26,402 nucleotides of DNA, from positions 1 to 26,402 of IMG/VR virus record IMGVR_UViG_3300012668_000143; one strand, given 5' to 3'. Below, one piece after another: positions 2,595-12,706 of the stretch; position 1 is the stretch's first letter, and each line of letters begins with the position of its first letter. The notes under the pieces are model-generated. The model did no database searches, had not been told where the DNA came from, and saw only the letters and a list, made by a program, of their open reading frames with translations. The stretch is from a virus. Position numbers and translations under genes: made by a program.

Positions 2595-2619
2595 CGCACG
2601 AGTACAACTGAATTACCAG

Positions 2620-2642
2620 AACCGGCCCAGTGCCGGTTTTTT
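2620..2642 (+). terminator. Rho-independent terminator after terL
   Basis: AACCGGC-ccagt-GCCGGTT followed by TTTT. Confidence 0.7.
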
Positions 2643-2657
2643 ATTGGGCAAGACGAA

Positions 2658-2879
2658 ATGGAAGAAGCGGAGTGGACAGTCTTACATGCCTTTGAGACAA
2701 AGCGCGATGAACTATACAAACGTGTAGCCGAAATGATGGCAAAGGCAGTGGAAGAGGGGCGGACACTCGATATAGATGAAAGCAAGATATTCGACAACGC
2801 AGTGGATGAAATAGAGTGCATCGATGGTCATGCGAAACGGCTGAAACGATTTGCAAAACTTAGGGATGGAGAGAAATGA
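2658..2879 (+). CDS. 73-aa stand-alone paralogue of the capsid N-terminal delta (scaffold) domain
   Basis: Ungapped 19/55 identity to the segment GFEQKR...RLRKH of the downstream capsid protein; ATGA overlap with the protease-capsid gene. Confidence 0.7.
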   Translation: MEEAEWTVLHAFETKRDELYKRVAEMMAKAVEEGRTLDIDESKIFDNAVDEIECIDGHAKRLKRFAKLRDGEK

Positions 2880-4831
2880 ACCGCGCTTTCAGCAGCATTG
2901 AATTCAAGAGCATAGACGATGACCGGCGCACATTCGAAGGCATTGCCAGCACGCCTGCGACCGATAGGATGGACGATATCGTTGAGCCGTTAGGCGCCAG
3001 ATTCAAATTGCCGCTGTCGTTCCTATATCAGCACGATAGCAAACGACCGATAGGGAATATCACACATGCCACTGCGACCGCAGACGGAATTCGCGTTCGC
3101 GGGTACATAGAAAAACTGGATGGCCCGCCAAGTCTTAAGGAACGGCTCGACGTTGCGTGGGCAGAAATAAAAGCCAAGTTGGTTCGAGGACTATCTATTG
3201 GCTTCAGGGGACTAGAAGAGGAACCGATCAAAGGAACATACGGCACGCGATACAAATCGTGGGAGTGGCTTGAGTTAAGCGCAGTCACGATACCGGCCCA
3301 CCAAGATGCCTGTTTTACAACCATCAAGGCCCTCGACCACGATTTTCTCGCCGCGTCCGGCAAAGAGAAAGCCGCAGTCGTTCGCCTTGGCAAATCCCCC
3401 GGCGCTTCGGGAACATCAATTAAAACCCCGAAAGGAATACCTATGAAAACGACCGCTGAAATTATCGCGGGCTTCGAGCAAAAACGAGCCGCCGTCGTCG
3501 GCAGTATGACAACCATCATGGAGAAGTCCGCCGAAGATGGCGCTACTCTGGATGATGAACAAACCACGCAGTACGACGACGCTGCGACGGAACTGAAAAC
3601 GATCGACGCGCATCTTGAGCGCCTGAGGAAGCATGAGCAGATCATGCTGACGAAGGCGACGGCGATTACGCACGAGAATACGCGCGACGAGACAACGGCT
3701 TCGAATACGCGCAGCAGCATCATCAGCGTGAAGGATAACCTGGAGCCGGGGATCAAGTTCACGCGGTACGTGAAGTGCCTGGCGATGGCGAACGGGAACC
3801 GGATGGAGGCGCTGGAGATTTCCAAGGGCTTGTATCCTGACATGCCGGCGCTGCACACCATTCTGAAAACTGCGGTATCGGCTGGCACGACGCAAGGTAC
3901 TACATGGGCGAAGCCGCTGGTCGAGTATCAGACTTATGCGGGGGACTTCCTGGAGTTCCTGCGCCCGGCGACGGTCATCGGCAAGTTCGGGACGGGGAAT
4001 ATTCCGAATCTACAGCGCGTGCCGTTCAATGTGCACATCAAGGGACAAACCAGCGGAGGCGATGCGTATTGGACGGGCGAGGGACAGGCCAAGCAATTGA
4101 CATCCTTCGACTTCCAAGACATCTACATAGGATTCACAAAGCTGGCGAACATCGCGGTAGTGACAGAAGAGTTGCTGCGGTATTCGAGTCCTGCCGCTGA
4201 AGGAATTATCCGCAAAGCGTTGGCAGATGCGCTTATTGCGCGGATGGATACAGACTTCATCGATCCGGCGAAGGCCGCAGTAGCGAACGTATCGCCAGCG
4301 TCAATCACGAATGGCGTGACGCCGATCACGGCGTCCGGCGGGACGATCGAAGCGCTGCGCACCGACATCTCGGCGTTGTGGAGCGCGTGGCTTACCAACA
4401 ACCTCGGCACGGCCAATGCGGTCTACATCGCGGACGCCATCACCGCGCTCCAGATTGGCACTCTGCGCAATGCTTTCGGCCAACCCGAATTCCCCGGACT
4501 TGGCATCAACGGCGGCATGTTGGATGGTGTACCTGTCATCGTCACTCAGCACGTTCCGCGTGTGACGGCAGGCGGCAAGTTGATCCTCGTCAATGCCAGC
4601 GAAATTTATCTTGCTGACGACGGCGATGTGTCGATCGACATCAGTCGGGAAGCGTCATTGCAGATGGACAATGCGGCGACAAATAACAGCGTTACGCCAA
4701 CCGCGACTACACTTGTTTCTCTTTGGCAATCAAACAGCGTTGGGGTTCGTGCCGAGCGCGCCGTGGGGTGGCAAAAGCGCCGAGCCAGCGCCGTGCAGTT
4801 CATTACGTCAACCGCCTATGATGGAACGTGA
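2876..4831 (+). CDS. HK97-type prohead protease fused to major capsid protein
   Basis: N-terminal DRMDDIV..G, LYQHD..PIG, GLSIGF and ELSAVTIPA protease motifs, then a coiled-coil delta domain and HK97 capsid motifs (WTGEG, TEELL, LDGVPV). Confidence 0.95.
   Translation: MNRAFSSIEFKSIDDDRRTFEGIASTPATDRMDDIVEPLGARFKLPLSFLYQHDSKRPIGNITHATATADGIRVRGYIEKLDGPPSLKERLDVAWAEIKAKLVRGLSIGFRGLEEEPIKGTYGTRYKSWEWLELSAVTIPAHQDACFTTIKALDHDFLAASGKEKAAVVRLGKSPGASGTSIKTPKGIPMKTTAEIIAGFEQKRAAVVGSMTTIMEKSAEDGATLDDEQTTQYDDAATELKTIDAHLERLRKHEQIMLTKATAITHENTRDETTASNTRSSIISVKDNLEPGIKFTRYVKCLAMANGNRMEALEISKGLYPDMPALHTILKTAVSAGTTQGTTWAKPLVEYQTYAGDFLEFLRPATVIGKFGTGNIPNLQRVPFNVHIKGQTSGGDAYWTGEGQAKQLTSFDFQDIYIGFTKLANIAVVTEELLRYSSPAAEGIIRKALADALIARMDTDFIDPAKAAVANVSPASITNGVTPITASGGTIEALRTDISALWSAWLTNNLGTANAVYIADAITALQIGTLRNAFGQPEFPGLGINGGMLDGVPVIVTQHVPRVTAGGKLILVNASEIYLADDGDVSIDISREASLQMDNAATNNSVTPTATTLVSLWQSNSVGVRAERAVGWQKRRASAVQFITSTAYDGT
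3431..3445 (+). promoter_or_regulatory. Internal in-frame RBS and ATG for a capsid-only product (3443..4831)
   Basis: AAAGGAatacctATG at 3431-3445, in frame (codon 190), at the protease/capsid boundary. Confidence 0.6.
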
Positions 4832-4835
4832 TCCG

Positions 4836-4844
4836 TGGTAAAAT
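4836..4844 (+). promoter_or_regulatory. Extended -10 promoter upstream of the c4-like RNA and GIY-YIG gene
   Basis: TGgTAAAAT, 7 nt before the structured element. Confidence 0.5.
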
Positions 4845-4851
4845 GAGAACT

Positions 4852-4906
4852 GCTGCGGATAGGTTTAGCGACCGACACGCTGGCGACCTGAGCCAGCTTC
4901 CGCAGT
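4852..4906 (+). ncRNA. c4/c4-2-like three-stem structured RNA
   Basis: Closing stem GCTGCGGA 4852-4859 / TCCGCAGT 4899-4906; inner stem GGTT-tagc-GACC; inner stem GCTGGC-gacctga-GCCAGC. Loop CCTGA is complementary to downstream TCAGG 4913-4917. Confidence 0.55.
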
Positions 4907-4938
4907 CTCCAATCAGGGTTCACTACAGGAGTGAATGT

Positions 4939-5976
4939 ATGGCGATTTTTATATATGGTCTTGAATGTCCAGTCGACATCGAAGTAAGGTATGTTGGAAA
5001 ATCCAACAACCCAACATCACGATTGGCATCACATATAGCAGCGGCCCGCACAGGGCGCACCAATCATTATTGCGCGCATTGGATAAGGAAACTTCTCGCG
5101 CTTAACTTGTCGCCAAGGATCGTCATATTGGCCGAAGTAGCAAGCGGAGAGCTATGGCAAGAGGTTGAGCGACGCATCATTAAAGATGCCGTGGCGCGAG
5201 GCTGGCGACTAACAAACGCCACGCCCGGAGGAGAAGGGGCAGTGTTCTTGCGGGAAGAAGATCGCCGCAAGTGGAGTGAACAAAAGTCCGCGTTGATGCG
5301 TGCGCTAAACGCAGACCCGAATTTCATAAAAAGTAGCAAATCCAGCGAGGCCAGCGCAAACCGATCAGCATCGGCGAAGAAAAAATGGCAAGACCCAAAG
5401 TACCGCGAAAAGATGTTGGTCAGTAGCGTGACGCGGGAAAGATTATCGGCGGCAAAACGGAAGAATTGGGAGAATCCTGAGTACCGCGCGAAATTGCACA
5501 TGGATGCTATGCGCCAAAAAGCTTCGGCAAACTCTCTGATGCGTAGCGCCGCATTATCGGCGGCAATGACCCAACGATGGGCCAGTCCAGACTTTAGAGA
5601 AAAAATGTCAATTTCACGATTGGATAGTCCAGGCCGTAGAGAAAAGATGTATTCGCCAGAGGCTCTCGCAAAGCGCGCAGCTACACGTCGAAACAATCCG
5701 GAATTAAAGGCGAAGATGGTCGAGGTGAATAAGCGTCCAGAAGTAATAGAGCGCCGCTCAATAGCAATGTCGGCAAGATGGGCGAACCCTGAGTACAAGT
5801 CCAGGCTTGTTGAAAGCGCCAAAAGACGTAGCATAGAAAACCCGTCAACCATTCAAGCCATCACTGCGGCTTCGCATACGCCTGAGGTGAGGGCGCGAGC
5901 CGCCGCAACGCTCAAAGCAACTTGGGCGCGGAAAAAAGCCGCAAAGGTCGCCGCCAAAGCCGCCGCCCAACAATAG
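4939..5976 (+). CDS. Free-standing GIY-YIG endonuclease with C-terminal basic W-x-x-P-x-Y/F-R/K repeats
   Basis: MAIFIYGL...RYVGKS..P.SRL..H, E...I and LTN.T.GGEG motifs; repeats WQDPKYREKM, WENPEYRAKL, WASPDFREKM, WANPEYKSRL; SD AGGAG 4927-4931 favours ATG 4939 over the ORF-track start at 4828. Confidence 0.88.
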   Translation: MAIFIYGLECPVDIEVRYVGKSNNPTSRLASHIAAARTGRTNHYCAHWIRKLLALNLSPRIVILAEVASGELWQEVERRIIKDAVARGWRLTNATPGGEGAVFLREEDRRKWSEQKSALMRALNADPNFIKSSKSSEASANRSASAKKKWQDPKYREKMLVSSVTRERLSAAKRKNWENPEYRAKLHMDAMRQKASANSLMRSAALSAAMTQRWASPDFREKMSISRLDSPGRREKMYSPEALAKRAATRRNNPELKAKMVEVNKRPEVIERRSIAMSARWANPEYKSRLVESAKRRSIENPSTIQAITAASHTPEVRARAAATLKATWARKKAAKVAAKAAAQQ

Positions 5977-6359: not shown

Positions 6360-6899
6360 ATGCGACTGTTCGGCCGCGAGCTGACCGTCACCAAGATGAA
6401 AGCCTTCGTACTCGCCAGCGGCCCATCCATGAACCAGCAAACCGCCGATGCGGTGCGCGGCAAGGAATTGGTGATCGCGGTGTCGGACGCCTTCCGACTT
6501 GCACCGTGGGCCGATGCCTTGGTCAGTTCCGATGCTGCTTGGTGGGTGGAGAATCAGGAAGCACACGACTTTCCTAGCCGGAAGTTCTCTGCGGCGCCGG
6601 TATTTGGCGTCGAGCGCGTGCCAGATGCATCGCTTGACAGCAATTCCGGGTTGCTCGCCATCAAGGTTGCCGTGTCTCTAGGCGCAGCGACGGTGATCCT
6701 GCTCGGCTACGACATGGGCGGTACGCACTTCTTCGGGAAGCATCTGGAGCCGCTTGAAAATACGACCGAGCATAGATTCAGGTCGTTTTGCAGGCAGTTC
6801 GCGCAGTATCACCCGGAAGGCGTCGAGATTGTCAATGCGACGCCGGGGAGCGCGCTGCGGGCTTATCCGTTGGTAACCATTGAGACCGTTATCCATTGA
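6360..6899 (+). CDS. DUF115/Maf- or sialyltransferase-like glycosyltransferase-fold protein; first 12 codons resemble the portal N-terminus (alternative start ATG 6396)
   Basis: VLASGPS, IAVSDA, NSGLLAI..A..LGA..VILLGYD and IVNATPGS.L motifs. Confidence 0.7.
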   Translation: MRLFGRELTVTKMKAFVLASGPSMNQQTADAVRGKELVIAVSDAFRLAPWADALVSSDAAWWVENQEAHDFPSRKFSAAPVFGVERVPDASLDSNSGLLAIKVAVSLGAATVILLGYDMGGTHFFGKHLEPLENTTEHRFRSFCRQFAQYHPEGVEIVNATPGSALRAYPLVTIETVIH

Positions 6900-8338: not shown

Positions 8339-8405
8339 AGCGGGGCGGTTGCGCCACAAGGTACAGATTGTCGCGCGAGTGACCGGGTGGAGGTCGGCGG
8401 CATGA
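8328..8405 (+). pseudogene. N-terminal stub of a phage head-closure (head-tail adaptor) gene
   Basis: MGLRAGRLRHKVQIVARVTG...stop matches the RAGxLRHRVxI start typical of SPP1 gp16-like proteins; only 25 aa. Confidence 0.6.
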
Positions 8406-8500
8406 GCAAGCGTGTGGTGATTGGGGATGCGACGCTTTATTGTGGAGATTGCATGGAGATGAAATCGAGGAGTAGATGCGTTTTTTCGGCCATGATCTGA
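8402..8500 (+). pseudogene. N-terminal stub of a site-specific DNA (N6-A/N4-C) methyltransferase
   Basis: GGAGG SD, then MSKRVVIGDATLYCGDCME, the usual start of phage beta-class MTases; truncated before DPPY and reads out of frame into the portal start. Confidence 0.6.
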
Positions 8501-9888
8501 CGATAACCAAGTCAGCACCTACCGGCCTGTCCGTACCATCCTATAGCGGCTCCGGGGGATGGTTCGGCGTAGTCCGCGAAGGCTTCAGTGGCGCATGGCA
8601 GCGCAACATCGAAGTCGAGTCGCGCGAGAACATCCTTGCGTTTTCTGCGGTGTATGCCTGCGTGAGCTTGATAGCCGGCGATATATCCAAGCTGCGGCTA
8701 AAACTCACGCGCAAAACGGGCGATGGCGTGTGGGAAGAATTCGACAGTCCAGCGTTCAGCCCAGTGCTACGCAAGCCGAACGGGTATCAGACGCATATTC
8801 AGTTTGTCGAGCAGTGGATCATCGCCAAGCTCATACATGGCAACGCCTATATCTACAAAGAGCGCGATGCGCGCGGCGTGGTGACAGACCTGTATGTCCT
8901 CGACAGCCGGCGCGTTCGTGTATTGGTCGCCGACGATGGCGGTGTCTACTATCAACTGAGCCGGGATGATCTCTCTCAGGTTGGCGATGGTATGACTGTT
9001 CCTGCGAGCGAGATCATTCATGATCGGATGAATTGCTTTTATCATCCGCTGGTCGGCGTAAGTCCTATCTCAGCGTGTGGTGCGTCGTCTACGCAGGGGA
9101 TAAGGATACAGGCCAATAGCGCCAAGTTCTTCGAGAATATGTCGCGGCCAAGCGGACAATTGACGGCTCCGGCGCGAATCGATGATGAAACGGCGGCACG
9201 CTTGAAACGGGAATTCGAAGAAGGGTTTTCAGGCAGCAATCTAGGCCGTCTATTCGTCAGCGGGAACGGGTTGAAATACGAGCCGATAGCGATTCCGCCG
9301 CAGGACGCGCAATTGATTCAGCAATTGGAATGGACTGGCCGCGATGTGGGCAACTGCTTCCATGTTCCGTTGCACAAATTGGGGATCGGACAGCCGACGC
9401 TGAACAACATCGCTGCGCTGAATCAGGACTATTACGCGCAATGTCTGCAAAAGATCATAGAGGACGCAGAAGCTCTTTTGGATGAAGGGCTGGCGCTTCC
9501 TGTAGGGTATTCAGCCGAGTTCGACCTTGAAGGTTTGTTGCGGATGGACCCGCCAGCACGGGCAGAAGTGAATGAGAAGGCAACGCGCGCAGGGATCATG
9601 ACGCCGAATGAGGGGCGACGGAGTATGAATCTGCCACCTGTGACGGGTGGTGACACACCCTACCTTCAGATGCAGAATTATTCACTTAGCGATCTTTCCA
9701 AACGTAGTGCTTTGCCCAATCCGTTTTCCGCTGCTATGCCTACGCAACAGAATCCATCTATACCGCCGCCGACACTGCCGGGAGACGCTACTGGCAAGGC
9801 TCTTGCGATAGATATAGAAGATGAACTGGAAGCCATAATGTTGTTCGCAAAGACGGACTTGAGGAAAGAATTGTGTCTGCCATACTAA
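8476..9888 (+). CDS. Portal protein, HK97 family
   Basis: AVYACV..IA..IS.L, KPN.YQT, L.HGNAY, EIIH, GVSPI, FF.N..RPSG.L, F.VP..KLG and TPNE.R...NLPP..GGD motifs. Confidence 0.97.
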   Translation: MRFFGHDLTITKSAPTGLSVPSYSGSGGWFGVVREGFSGAWQRNIEVESRENILAFSAVYACVSLIAGDISKLRLKLTRKTGDGVWEEFDSPAFSPVLRKPNGYQTHIQFVEQWIIAKLIHGNAYIYKERDARGVVTDLYVLDSRRVRVLVADDGGVYYQLSRDDLSQVGDGMTVPASEIIHDRMNCFYHPLVGVSPISACGASSTQGIRIQANSAKFFENMSRPSGQLTAPARIDDETAARLKREFEEGFSGSNLGRLFVSGNGLKYEPIAIPPQDAQLIQQLEWTGRDVGNCFHVPLHKLGIGQPTLNNIAALNQDYYAQCLQKIIEDAEALLDEGLALPVGYSAEFDLEGLLRMDPPARAEVNEKATRAGIMTPNEGRRSMNLPPVTGGDTPYLQMQNYSLSDLSKRSALPNPFSAAMPTQQNPSIPPPTLPGDATGKALAIDIEDELEAIMLFAKTDLRKELCLPY

Positions 9889-10601
9889 AAAGTTGCACTA
9901 GCTGCAAAGTGGCGAAACCGCTAGATGAGTTCAATAAGAATCATAGACCATGCATAAAGCCAAATCGTAGAGGCCATGGTGTTATATCTCAGTGCAAGGC
10001 ATGCTGTAGCCATCGAGCCGATCCAACGCTGCGAGGCAGACGAGAGCACATAGCAGCCTTAGTGGCGCGGCAGTTGAAAATGTGCGGCACCTGCAAACAA
10101 GGATTACCTCACTCGGCATTCCATAAGCGTGTCGCATCGGATGATGGACTTGCATTTGCATGCAAGCAATGCATAAACGAGAACAGCAAGAAATGGCGGG
10201 AGGCGAATCCTAATGCAAGCAAAGAATGGGAGAAAGCGCATAGCGTGGAACGGCTTGCTTATCGCACTCAATGGCGATCTGAGAATTTAGAGAGTCGTAA
10301 AGAATATATGGCTCGATGGGCAAAAGCCAATCCCCACAAAGTAAACGCGCTAATCGCCAAGCGCACAGCGGCCAAGTTTCAAGCCACAGTATCGTGGTCA
10401 AACCAATCCGCCATTGAAGCCATCTATGCAGAGGCAACGCGCCTGACGCGGGAGACTGGCATTCGCCATGAAGTAGATCACATCGTACCGCTTCAAGGAA
10501 AAATCGTCAGTGGATTGCATTGGGAAGGCAATCTGCAAATCATGACGAAGAGCGAAAACATCGCGAAGTTGAATCGTTACTGGCCGGACGCCCCGACATG
10601 A
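9873..10601 (+). CDS. Free-standing HNH endonuclease (paralogue of 394..1080) with two Cys4 zinc fingers
   Basis: CTSC..CKAC and CGTC..CKQC; HEVDHIVPLQG..VSGLH...NLQ....EN..K.NR.WPD. GTG start overlaps the portal stop; ATGA overlap downstream. Confidence 0.9.
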   Translation: MSAILKSCTSCKVAKPLDEFNKNHRPCIKPNRRGHGVISQCKACCSHRADPTLRGRREHIAALVARQLKMCGTCKQGLPHSAFHKRVASDDGLAFACKQCINENSKKWREANPNASKEWEKAHSVERLAYRTQWRSENLESRKEYMARWAKANPHKVNALIAKRTAAKFQATVSWSNQSAIEAIYAEATRLTRETGIRHEVDHIVPLQGKIVSGLHWEGNLQIMTKSENIAKLNRYWPDAPT

Positions 10602-12706
10602 TCGAAAAACAAGAGATTTCATCTTTGATGAAGGCGGTCGCCGGAGTAGTGCGCGAGTATGTCGATGGCAAAGCCGATCCACTAGGCACCCGTCTTGCCG
10701 ACTTGGAAACGCGCATAGAAGAAGTCTCAAAGCCAGATCGCTTCAAGTCGTACCTTGACGATTCATTCGATGCGGCGCGCAAAGAAAATGTTGGCTTTGG
10801 CGACAAACTCGGCGGCATAGAGAAGCGGCTTGATGCCACTAACGCGGCCATTGCCGGTGCCGTAGAGCCATTCGGTGTTCGTCTCGCGGGCTTAGAGGCC
10901 AAAGTCGAAGAAGCGGCCAACACAGAGCGATTTCGGCCATTCCTTGAATCTGCTCTGGATGCGGTGCGCAAGGAAAGCGGCGCGGTCGATGAGAAATGGG
11001 GCGAGATCGAAAAGCGGCTGGAGTCGTCTGGTGCGGCCATTGCCGACCTGATTGATCCGTTGGAACTAAAACTTGCAGGGCTGGATGCGCACGTCAGGAA
11101 TGTTGTTACCACTATTCCTGCCGATCGGTCGGATGAAATTGCCGAACAAGTGCGCGTCGCACGCGAGGAAATCGCAACGGTCGGCAAGAGAATCGACGGT
11201 TTAGAACCGCGTCTTGAAGGAGTATCCAAAAGCGCGATCGAAGTGGTAACGCCTATTTCGGAAAGAGTCATTCGCTTAGAGACGCGCTACGAAGATGTAA
11301 AGCGTGACGCGATTGAGGCCGGCATTGCCAAGGCGATCAACGACTTCTCAGGAAAGGAAGTAACGCCGCTGAATGGCAAGATCGGCATGCTCGAAGCGCG
11401 GCTGGAGGATATTGCAAAAACGGCTGAAGCAGTTAATCCTTTGACCGGAAAGATCGATGACTTGTCGGCACGATTCAGCGAAGTCGCTGCGGCGAATGAT
11501 GCGCGACACGAACAAAGCCTGAAGTCGGTAGAGGTTGCAATAGTCGAAGCCGTAAAGCAACTGCCTCCTCCTAAGGACGGCGAACACGGCAAGGATGGTG
11601 TAAGCGCATATCAGCTCGCGGTAAGCAAAGGTTTCTCTGGATCGGAGGACGAATGGCTAGGATCGCTAAAAGGACTCATCGGAATCAAAGGAGATGCAGG
11701 CGAATCTATCATTGGGCCAAAGGGCGATCCTGGTAAGGATGCCGAGCCGGTTGATATAGAGGTTGTCGTCAAGGAAGTCGTTGCGCAAATTCCGGTGCCG
11801 AAGGATGGGAAAGACGGCAAGGACGCAGAACCAGTCTCAGATGAACTGATACGCGCTGAAGTTGCGAAGGCCGTTGCGGAAATCCCAAAACCTAAAGACG
11901 TGGCTCCTGAAGTTGTTGCAGAGATGATCGCCGCTGAAGTTCGAAAAGCGGTATCAGAACTGCCAAAAGCAAACGATGGGAAAGACGGTTTGGCAGGAAA
12001 AGATGCGGAGCCGGTAGATGTCGAGAAGATTGTTGGAGATGTTATCGCCAAGATGCCTGTGCCGAAGGATGGCGAGCGAGGCCCGCCCGGAGAAAGCATT
12101 GTGGGGCTTAAAGGTGATCCAGGGCGCGAGGTGCCTATAGAAGTGGTCTCGGCGCTGGTCGCTGGCGAAGTGGCAAAGGCGATAGGGTCTATCCCAAAAC
12201 CTGAGAAGGCGCGGGATGGCGAAGATGGCCGCGACGCGCTGCACATAGAAGTGCTACCCACTATAGACACGAGCAAGAGTGTTCCACGCGGAACATTCGC
12301 AAGTCACAACGGCGGGCTATGGCGAGCCGCCAGAAACACTGATCCAGGCGACGATCTGCACCTGTGCGGCTGGCAGTCACTTGTTGAAGGCTTCCCCGAA
12401 ATCGAGATTGACCAAGGTGAGGATTTACGGACGTTCACGCTGCGTGCGGTGAGTTCTAGCGGTCGCAAGATAGAAAAACTGTTTTCGTTGCCGGTGATGA
12501 TTGACCGTGGAGTGTTCAAGTCAGAAGCGGCATACGTTGCCGGTGATGTTGTGTCATATGGCGGGAGCATTTGGATTGCGCAGCATGAAACGAAAGATAC
12601 GCCCGGAATGAGCGACGGTTTTCGGCTTGCTGTCAAAAAAGGACGTGATGGAAAGGATGTAGCGCTGTTATCACCTAAGACGCAACAACAGGTAAGGTTA
12701 AAGTAA
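10598..12706 (+). CDS. Portal-adjacent virion protein: coiled-coil repeats, collagen-like G-x-D-G segments, C-terminal beta domain
   Basis: 63-aa tandem repeats, SAYQLAV..GF.GSE.EWL.SLKG, repeated PKDG/GKDAEPV, C-terminal GRDAL.IE.LP.ID..KS.PRG...GGLWRA...Y..GD.V.YGGS.W. Start taken at ATG 10598 (ATGA overlap). Confidence 0.8.
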   Translation: MIEKQEISSLMKAVAGVVREYVDGKADPLGTRLADLETRIEEVSKPDRFKSYLDDSFDAARKENVGFGDKLGGIEKRLDATNAAIAGAVEPFGVRLAGLEAKVEEAANTERFRPFLESALDAVRKESGAVDEKWGEIEKRLESSGAAIADLIDPLELKLAGLDAHVRNVVTTIPADRSDEIAEQVRVAREEIATVGKRIDGLEPRLEGVSKSAIEVVTPISERVIRLETRYEDVKRDAIEAGIAKAINDFSGKEVTPLNGKIGMLEARLEDIAKTAEAVNPLTGKIDDLSARFSEVAAANDARHEQSLKSVEVAIVEAVKQLPPPKDGEHGKDGVSAYQLAVSKGFSGSEDEWLGSLKGLIGIKGDAGESIIGPKGDPGKDAEPVDIEVVVKEVVAQIPVPKDGKDGKDAEPVSDELIRAEVAKAVAEIPKPKDVAPEVVAEMIAAEVRKAVSELPKANDGKDGLAGKDAEPVDVEKIVGDVIAKMPVPKDGERGPPGESIVGLKGDPGREVPIEVVSALVAGEVAKAIGSIPKPEKARDGEDGRDALHIEVLPTIDTSKSVPRGTFASHNGGLWRAARNTDPGDDLHLCGWQSLVEGFPEIEIDQGEDLRTFTLRAVSSSGRKIEKLFSLPVMIDRGVFKSEAAYVAGDVVSYGGSIWIAQHETKDTPGMSDGFRLAVKKGRDGKDVALLSPKTQQQVRLK

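Follow-up and report, generated by a model that had tools for sequence, protein, structure and literature searches.

The small open reading frame (ORF) directly upstream of the major capsid gene in this viral genome encodes a real but orphan fragment of an HK97-type scaffold, and we consider it, with a probability of about one half, to be a probably translated 5' stub that recombination left of a delta-capsid gene from a foreign source. The window analyzed here is the whole stretch of 26,402 nucleotides that forms positions 1 to 26,402 of IMG/VR virus record IMGVR_UViG_3300012668_000143. Within it, the ORF occupies 2658-2879 on the plus strand, runs from an ATG start to a TGA stop and specifies 73 amino acids, a stand-alone fragment corresponding to the coiled-coil 'tower' of the delta domain. 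It lies between TerL (1059-2594) and the capsid gene, within a full head-tail module that includes portal, neck and tail genes; a probable small terminase gene (2-310) and an HNH-like gene (394-1080) are found upstream, and a GIY-YIG gene (4828-5976) is found downstream.

The capsid gene (2876-4831, plus strand) encodes a 651-residue fusion of a prohead protease, a delta (scaffold) domain and an HK97-fold major capsid protein. The fusion is recognized by Pfam Peptidase_S78 and Phage_capsid and by PHROG 617 (E 6e-149), and is also matched by NF045541 and, from residue 202, by the HK97-type capsid model TIGR01554. The TGA stop of the ORF overlaps the ATG of this gene as ATGA at 2876-2879. A preliminary description had reported an intact, ATGA-coupled and free-standing delta-homologous ORF directly before the protease-capsid fusion, and both the sequence and BLASTP confirm it.

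The similarity between the ORF and the capsid protein is homology and not a product of coiled-coil composition. BLASTP with composition-based statistics aligns the ORF with the 651-residue fusion at 46 bits (E 9e-12), in a single alignment without gaps that pairs ORF residues 8-68 with capsid residues 196-256 and contains 19 identical and 38 positive positions out of 61. The 55-residue gapless stretch noted at first, and its capsid coordinates of 3467-3631, are correct; the BLASTP alignment is simply longer. Its capsid partner, the resident tower region, maps to 3461-3643 on the plus strand, in a patch with about 90% nucleotide identity to the closest relative that we found, L022 (TerL 79% identical at the amino acid level). 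The Smith-Waterman score of the ORF against the capsid is 105, compared with 30.6 +/- 4.8 for plain shuffles against the whole capsid, 29.7 +/- 5.8 for heptad-preserving shuffles and 29.0 +/- 6.4 for shuffles that keep the hydrophobic pattern. None of the 2000 shuffles in any of the three controls reached the observed score (z of 11.8-15.5), and the alignment thus stands up to the shuffled coiled-coil comparison on which its significance depended.

Profile and translated searches place the ORF in the same family of domains. Positions 204-251 of the PHROG 617 profile (protease-capsid 'major head protein') match the ORF with an E value of 6.7e-6, and an alignment of 17 delta N-termini has no gaps across the ORF region. 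With tblastn, the ORF finds about 98 phage capsid genes, and in the phage collection its matches fall only in their delta regions. Pfam and NCBIfam returned no family for the ORF. BLASTP, tblastn and the alignments agree on a delta-homologous core of ORF residues 8-68 (2679-2861, plus strand), equivalent to the part that forms coiled-coil towers in scaffold domains of the HK97 type.

This core is the tower part only, with neither a capsomer-binding element nor a capsid body, as judged from the alignments and from structure prediction. The scaffold domain of HK97 comprises 103 residues (gp5 residues 2-103), of which residues 2-66 form coiled-coil helices that assemble into trimeric towers and bind the portal, while residues 76-105, preceded by a spacer, form a helix-turn-strand that sits on the capsomer (PMC10275583). 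AlphaFold2, run with the 17-sequence alignment, predicts two helices for the ORF product (residues 3-32 and 39-69) joined by a turn at EGRTLD, with a pLDDT of 93.7. A structure search of the ESM Atlas finds this shape within the delta regions of models for capsid and protease-capsid proteins, and Foldseek searches of the PDB with the same model return generic helical hairpins only (E > 0.5). Homology stops at about residue 68. The helical hairpin is thus predicted with high confidence, but it lacks the segment by which the delta domain contacts the capsomer, and no capsid-binding element was identified: of the complete delta architecture, the spacer, the third helix and the beta-strand are absent, leaving two helices only. 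The ORF is also not covalently joined to an HK97-fold capsid, as its 73 codons end in a stop and the capsid gene is read in a different frame. Inspection by eye revealed no canonical slippery site ahead of the ORF stop, and the capsid frame contains a TAG five codons before the capsid ATG. Lacking both the helix-turn-strand and the capsid body, the ORF product would therefore be unable to scaffold on its own. The label 'delta (scaffold) domain' used for the ORF in the preliminary description holds for the N-terminal two-helix coiled-coil part and fails for the capsomer-seating helix-turn-strand.

Within the tower, the ORF is fairly well preserved. Among the 19 columns that are at least 90% conserved among towers, 16 are kept, including the EEGRTLD turn; the three losses are E7 and Q8, which make up a near-invariant N-terminal E-Q, and the core leucine L59. 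Genuine towers miss 0.6 of these columns on average and four at most, and the three missed by the ORF are raised but within this range. Scored against a profile of genuine towers, the ORF reaches 60 bits, with the genuine range extending from 28 to 100 bits. Overall, it resembles the delta domains of the HK97 family in its homologous N-terminal part, its two coiled-coil helices and its conserved turn, but differs from them in being unfused, in lacking the spacer and helix-turn-strand, and in having lost the E-Q and one core leucine.

The start of the ORF is reminiscent of a second start site within capsid genes of this type. The fusion gene contains an internal AAGGA Shine-Dalgarno motif and an in-frame ATG (Met190) at 3432-3445 on the plus strand, at the protease/delta boundary, and a Shine-Dalgarno-like motif with an in-frame ATG is kept at this boundary in 12 of 13 fused relatives. 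This nested start probably yields a protease-less delta-capsid protein whose N-terminus the ORF mimics. Nested scaffold genes are familiar from lambda C/Nu3 and Mu I/Z. The N-terminus of the ORF, with a methionine, about eight residues and then F-E-x-K-R, imitates the internal-start product of a fusion; unlike such a product, the ORF is a separate upstream cistron that stops once the tower is complete instead of running on into the capsid. In several relatives (L008-L015, L019 and L020), the protease part is a separate ORF of about 185-250 residues, with the delta-capsid in another frame; these relatives are either truly unfused, dependent on a frameshift, or affected by assembly errors.

Although the ORF is a real delta homologue, it is not a copy of the delta domain of the neighboring capsid, as had first been proposed; its homology points instead to another phage lineage. 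In local alignments, it is 31% identical to the delta of the neighboring capsid and 45-47% identical to the fusions of Shiga-toxin phages and of Salmonella phage FSL SP-016. A HMMER search of 1.84 billion representatives gave 14 matches, the best of which are the N-termini of unfused delta-capsid proteins (41-47% identity), and the match begins about eight residues after the methionine in the ORF and in these proteins alike. Compared over 70 columns, the tower nearest to the ORF is 39-41% identical and the median is 33%, against medians of 43-48% for genuine towers. The resident tower is 27-31% identical to the ORF, yet its protein sequence is 88% identical to that of the L022 tower. Base composition also sets the ORF apart: its GC content is 46% and its GC3 45%, whereas the genes of this genome have a GC3 of 61.5 +/- 7.2%, only 1% of them are this low, and the resident tower has a GC3 of 67%.

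Comparison with L022 shows how the ORF is placed. The segment at 2606-2660 (plus strand) is 84% identical at the nucleotide level to L022 3998-4051, where the L022 protease-capsid gene has its leader and ATG, and from 2873 onward the window matches the start of the L022 capsid gene in both blastn and MAFFT alignments. Between them lie 213 nucleotides (2661-2873, plus strand) that are extra relative to L022, with L022-homologous sequence on either side. The left flank is thus the L022 capsid leader with its ATG and the right flank the L022 capsid start, and the ORF therefore begins at the positional homologue of the capsid start codon, with an ancestral capsid leader that now serves the ORF. 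A short repeat, AGA(C)GAAATG, that flanks the insert is not above chance. We rejected two other accounts of the junction. A longer duplicated leader flanking the insert was discarded because 10% of other gene starts score equally well, and an in-frame insertion into a two-codon upstream ORF was discarded because the ORF ATG aligns with the L022 capsid ATG and not with the ATG of the L022 mini-ORF.

Part of this ancestral leader is a hairpin at 2618-2645 (plus strand), with a 9-bp stem, a 5-nt loop and a following U-run in the RNA fold, which follows the TerL stop (2594) and directly precedes the ORF. A hairpin with a T-run directly upstream of the capsid ribosome-binding site is also found in PAJU2 (L021) and at least six other relatives, namely L022, L003, L004, L005, L039 and L099. 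A GC-rich hairpin with a U-run before the most highly expressed late gene would be an odd position for a terminator; it may be an antiterminated terminator, or an element that stabilizes or processes the mRNA. Rfam has no family at the hairpin, and a sigma-70 promoter scan of the TerL-capsid interval found no promoter. Since the ORF has taken over the capsid leader, it is probably expressed.

At its other end, the ORF contains the Shine-Dalgarno sequence of the capsid gene. The GGAG lies within the last ORF codons and, together with the ATGA stop/start overlap, spans 2868-2879 on the plus strand; relatives usually have GGAG(A/G) at the equivalent place before the capsid ATG. If the right-hand junction were arbitrary, one in three reading frames would end at the ATGA, and an intact, coupled ORF therefore needs no selection to account for it.

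The junction falls in a genome of mixed ancestry. Between 1896 and 2495, TerL is 83-95% identical to L022 at the nucleotide level, dropping to 62% from 2496 onward, and the capsid gene reaches about 90% identity to L022 only at 3350-3650. The TerL protein has many relatives at 63-79% amino acid identity, and the capsid has none above 54%. The ORF sits on a seam between modules of different history. The slot between TerL and the capsid gene is itself variable: it is empty in most relatives, whereas L007 has an HTH gene there and L017/18 an RHH gene. In L022, the same slot (3408-3976) holds two unrelated small ORFs with no family match, one of 95 residues on the plus strand and a Cys-rich one of 86 residues on the minus strand. 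The 83-95% patches shared with L022 are sharp-edged and lie within genes that are otherwise 45-65% identical, and in both the window and L022 an HNH gene precedes TerL and a GIY-YIG gene follows the capsid region. The shared nuclease flanks and the sharp patches suggest co-conversion driven by the nucleases.

We found no conserved stand-alone relatives of the ORF. None is present in the 98 loci of 18 capsid relatives and 80 TerL relatives, L022 included, and a fusion without a stub is the state in all of them. Searches of IMG/VR, the JGI metagenomes and the GTDB genomes gave no close relatives, and neither did a plasmid collection. A near-length word search of 5.8 billion clusters recovered the ORF itself only (its own protein cluster includes a second contig), a profile search of proteins of 30-128 residues yielded fragments but no stand-alone family, and the HMMER search of the 1.84 billion representatives likewise contained no stand-alone homologue. 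The short database matches extend beyond the tower into the spacer, and they either finish in frameshift-like tails or lie on very short contigs, which points to broken capsid 5' ends and not to a family. The distribution check that had been proposed for the functional readings of the ORF thus turned against them: every short homologue in the databases is a 5' end of a capsid gene that has been truncated or frameshifted, and these, together with the junction anatomy and the other stubs described below, favor a by-product of recombination. Conservation beside the capsid gene across relatives, as would be expected of a separately encoded internal scaffolding protein such as P22 gp8, phi29 gp7, 80alpha gp46 or lambda Nu3, is not seen for the ORF.

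Similar fragments occur elsewhere in the genome. The Maf-like gene opens (6360-6395) with a diverged copy of the first 12 codons of the portal gene (8476-8511), matching at 30 of 39 nucleotides, and these two portal starts bracket a transferase/methyltransferase cassette of about 2.1 kb. A 37-codon ORF at 8387-8500 overlaps the portal start and encodes the N-terminal part of a DNA methylase; compared with the genome's own N6_N4 methylase from Met1, it is identical at 12 of 27 residues (E 2e-5). Start-anchored 5' stubs at junctions are thus a recurring by-product in this genome. A candidate head-closure stub was not confirmed on comparison with the resident gene.

Mobile nucleases crowd the genome, which carries HNH, GIY-YIG and EndoVII-like genes as well as three TnpB-like genes. 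In the region 8476-12706, an EndoVII/HNH-like gene (9873-10601) lies between the portal gene (470 residues) and a gene for a 728-residue protein, whose C-terminal 300 residues match the 'portal' profiles PHROG 1289/2271 and whose residues 325-440 match tail-fibre-like PHROGs. We considered a split portal and rejected it, as PAJU2 has portal gp06 and gp07 as separate adjoining genes without a nuclease. The record as a whole is 100.6 kb long. Its first 36 kb hold the full head-tail module, and 76-100 kb hold phage-type early genes and three TnpB/IS605-OrfB genes. The minus strand of 36-76 kb encodes TraG_N, TraH, TraN, TraC, TrbI/TraB-like, a TrwC relaxase-helicase, a TraD/TrwB coupling protein and RepA_C; with its F-type conjugation system, relaxase and RepA gene, this part is a conjugative-plasmid module. 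Possible explanations for this record are a conjugative phage-plasmid, a prophage carried by a plasmid or ICE, and a chimeric assembly. We had also considered that a 100-kb genome might call for a larger capsid in need of extra scaffold; with 36-76 kb being a conjugation/plasmid module, the length of the genome says nothing about capsid size, and this idea was dropped.

We therefore favor a reading in which the ORF would be what recombination left of a second, foreign capsid gene of the HK97 type: a 5' stub at the point where the terminase and capsid modules of the mosaic meet. The stub would contain a start codon and the first ~67 codons, encoding the two coiled-coil delta helices. It would have taken the original leader and ATG of the capsid gene, with the capsid now starting 218 nt further on from its own GGAG with an ATGA overlap. 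As it occupies the capsid leader and ATG, the stub is probably translated into a 73-residue helical hairpin, which at most would join or cap the towers of true delta domains or fill their portal groove. We infer a recombination route, translation and neutrality from the observations given above, and in our judgement the ORF arose recently and is carried as a tolerated passenger, not as an assembly factor under selection.

Gene stubs found where the modules of mosaic phage genomes meet reportedly have a place in the illegitimate-recombination model of Hendrix and colleagues. The ORF behaves like such stubs in starting at its parent's native start codon and being truncated, in lying at a sharp mosaic boundary with L022-homologous flanks and in a variable slot, and in being a singleton of foreign composition that is absent from relatives and accompanied by further stubs. 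It differs from them in being unusually long (68 homologous codons), in ending at the boundary of a structural module and in having taken the capsid leader. Several points argue against a passenger. The truncation at about residue 67 coincides with a structural boundary (HK97 towers span residues 2-66; PMC10275583) that a random breakpoint would rarely hit; most conserved positions are retained, the profile score lies within the range of genuine towers and the predicted fold is confident; and, with a leader inherited from the gene that is expressed most strongly, any harmful peptide would be counter-selected. In addition, no donor in which a terminase gene and hairpin are directly followed by an unfused delta-capsid gene was found among the 98 relatives, and a simple one-crossover route is therefore undocumented.

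As an alternative to a passenger, the ORF might encode a functional free tower protein that, made at capsid-like levels, acts in trans by entering or capping delta towers or by filling the portal groove, a reading that we consider less likely. Such a protein might tune the phage's own assembly through tower stoichiometry, the portal vertex or size, poison co-infecting relatives or satellites, or serve as a decoy for a defense that senses scaffolds. The ORF is exactly the coiled-coil module that binds the portal in HK97, and its truncation coincides with the end of that module. Most conserved residues are kept and the predicted fold is confident, the ORF uses the ancestral capsid leader and is ATGA-coupled to the capsid gene, and its expression is likely high yet evidently tolerated. 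That the ORF is closer to the towers of other lineages than to the resident one would also fit a product directed at other phages' assemblies. More specifically, it is doubtful that a free foreign tower made from the capsid leader acts as a natural dominant-negative scaffold fragment, tuning the phage's own procapsids or sabotaging relatives and satellites. A selected function is hard to reconcile with a singleton for which no collection that we searched contains a conserved stand-alone homologue, and the ORF is absent from L022 despite the nearly identical resident tower of that phage. The loss of the near-invariant EQ motif and a core leucine, the atypical composition and the presence of other, plainly non-functional stubs in the genome argue in the same direction. 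The auxiliary scaffold, the capsid-size modulator and the decoy put forward in the preliminary description consequently find no comparative support.

Known satellite systems offer the nearest parallels for a protein of this kind. SaPI1 CpmB, at about 72 residues, is a precedent for redirecting assembly. Like SaPI1 CpmB, SaPIbov5 Ccm and P4 Sid, the ORF product is a small helical protein or a capsid/scaffold homologue encoded apart from the capsid gene. Those redirectors are family-conserved satellite genes for which size redirection has been demonstrated; the ORF, in contrast, is a singleton in a phage's own head operon and is known from sequence alone. No significant sequence match was found between the ORF and CpmB, Ccm or Sid. 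By analogy, small scaffold or capsid homologues that redirect assembly, including the capsid homologue Ccm of SaPIbov5 (PMC8569155), make a trans-acting role conceivable, and Type I CBASS can be triggered by nothing more than a scaffold domain (bioRxiv 10.1101/2023.05.21.541620). We regard the Ccm and CBASS cases as analogies and not as evidence for the ORF.

The ORF might also act only in cis, as a translated upstream ORF whose peptide is irrelevant and whose termination at UGA, followed by re-initiation at the capsid AUG, adds to initiation from the GGAG. Ribosomes would load on the ancestral U-rich, SD-poor leader that is retained upstream, the ATGA overlap would suit re-initiation, and L022 has a two-codon ATG-AAA-TGA mini-ORF that overlaps its capsid ATG with equal geometry. 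We find this improbable, as a GGAG of its own precedes the capsid gene at the usual place, just as in relatives without an upstream ORF; no RNA structure occludes the capsid start in a way that upstream translation must open (z +0.6), and most relatives manage without any upstream ORF. An old tandem duplication of the resident delta domain that diverged in place would explain why the ORF adjoins the capsid gene and aligns with it without gaps and with the hydrophobic pattern kept, but it is highly improbable given that L022 lacks the stub despite its near-identical tower, that the ORF is nearer to the towers of other lineages both locally and over the full length, that its GC3 departs from that of the resident tower, and that all 98 relatives have the stub-less fusion.

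Whichever reading applies, the ORF illustrates that being intact and ATGA-coupled is poor evidence of function, and its interest stays modest unless it proves to be expressed and to have an assembly phenotype. With an active peptide, the tower module of a delta domain of the HK97 type would be supplied in trans, and to our knowledge there is no earlier natural case of this. An active peptide would be a tool to probe tower-portal recruitment and capsid geometry, and may represent a new form of interference between phages. If the ORF is instead a scar of recombination, it would provide a clean and datable example of how mosaic genomes are joined, in which a crossover fell inside the 5' end of a capsid gene and the resulting stub captured the leader of an essential gene, a pattern that is repeated at the portal in the same genome.
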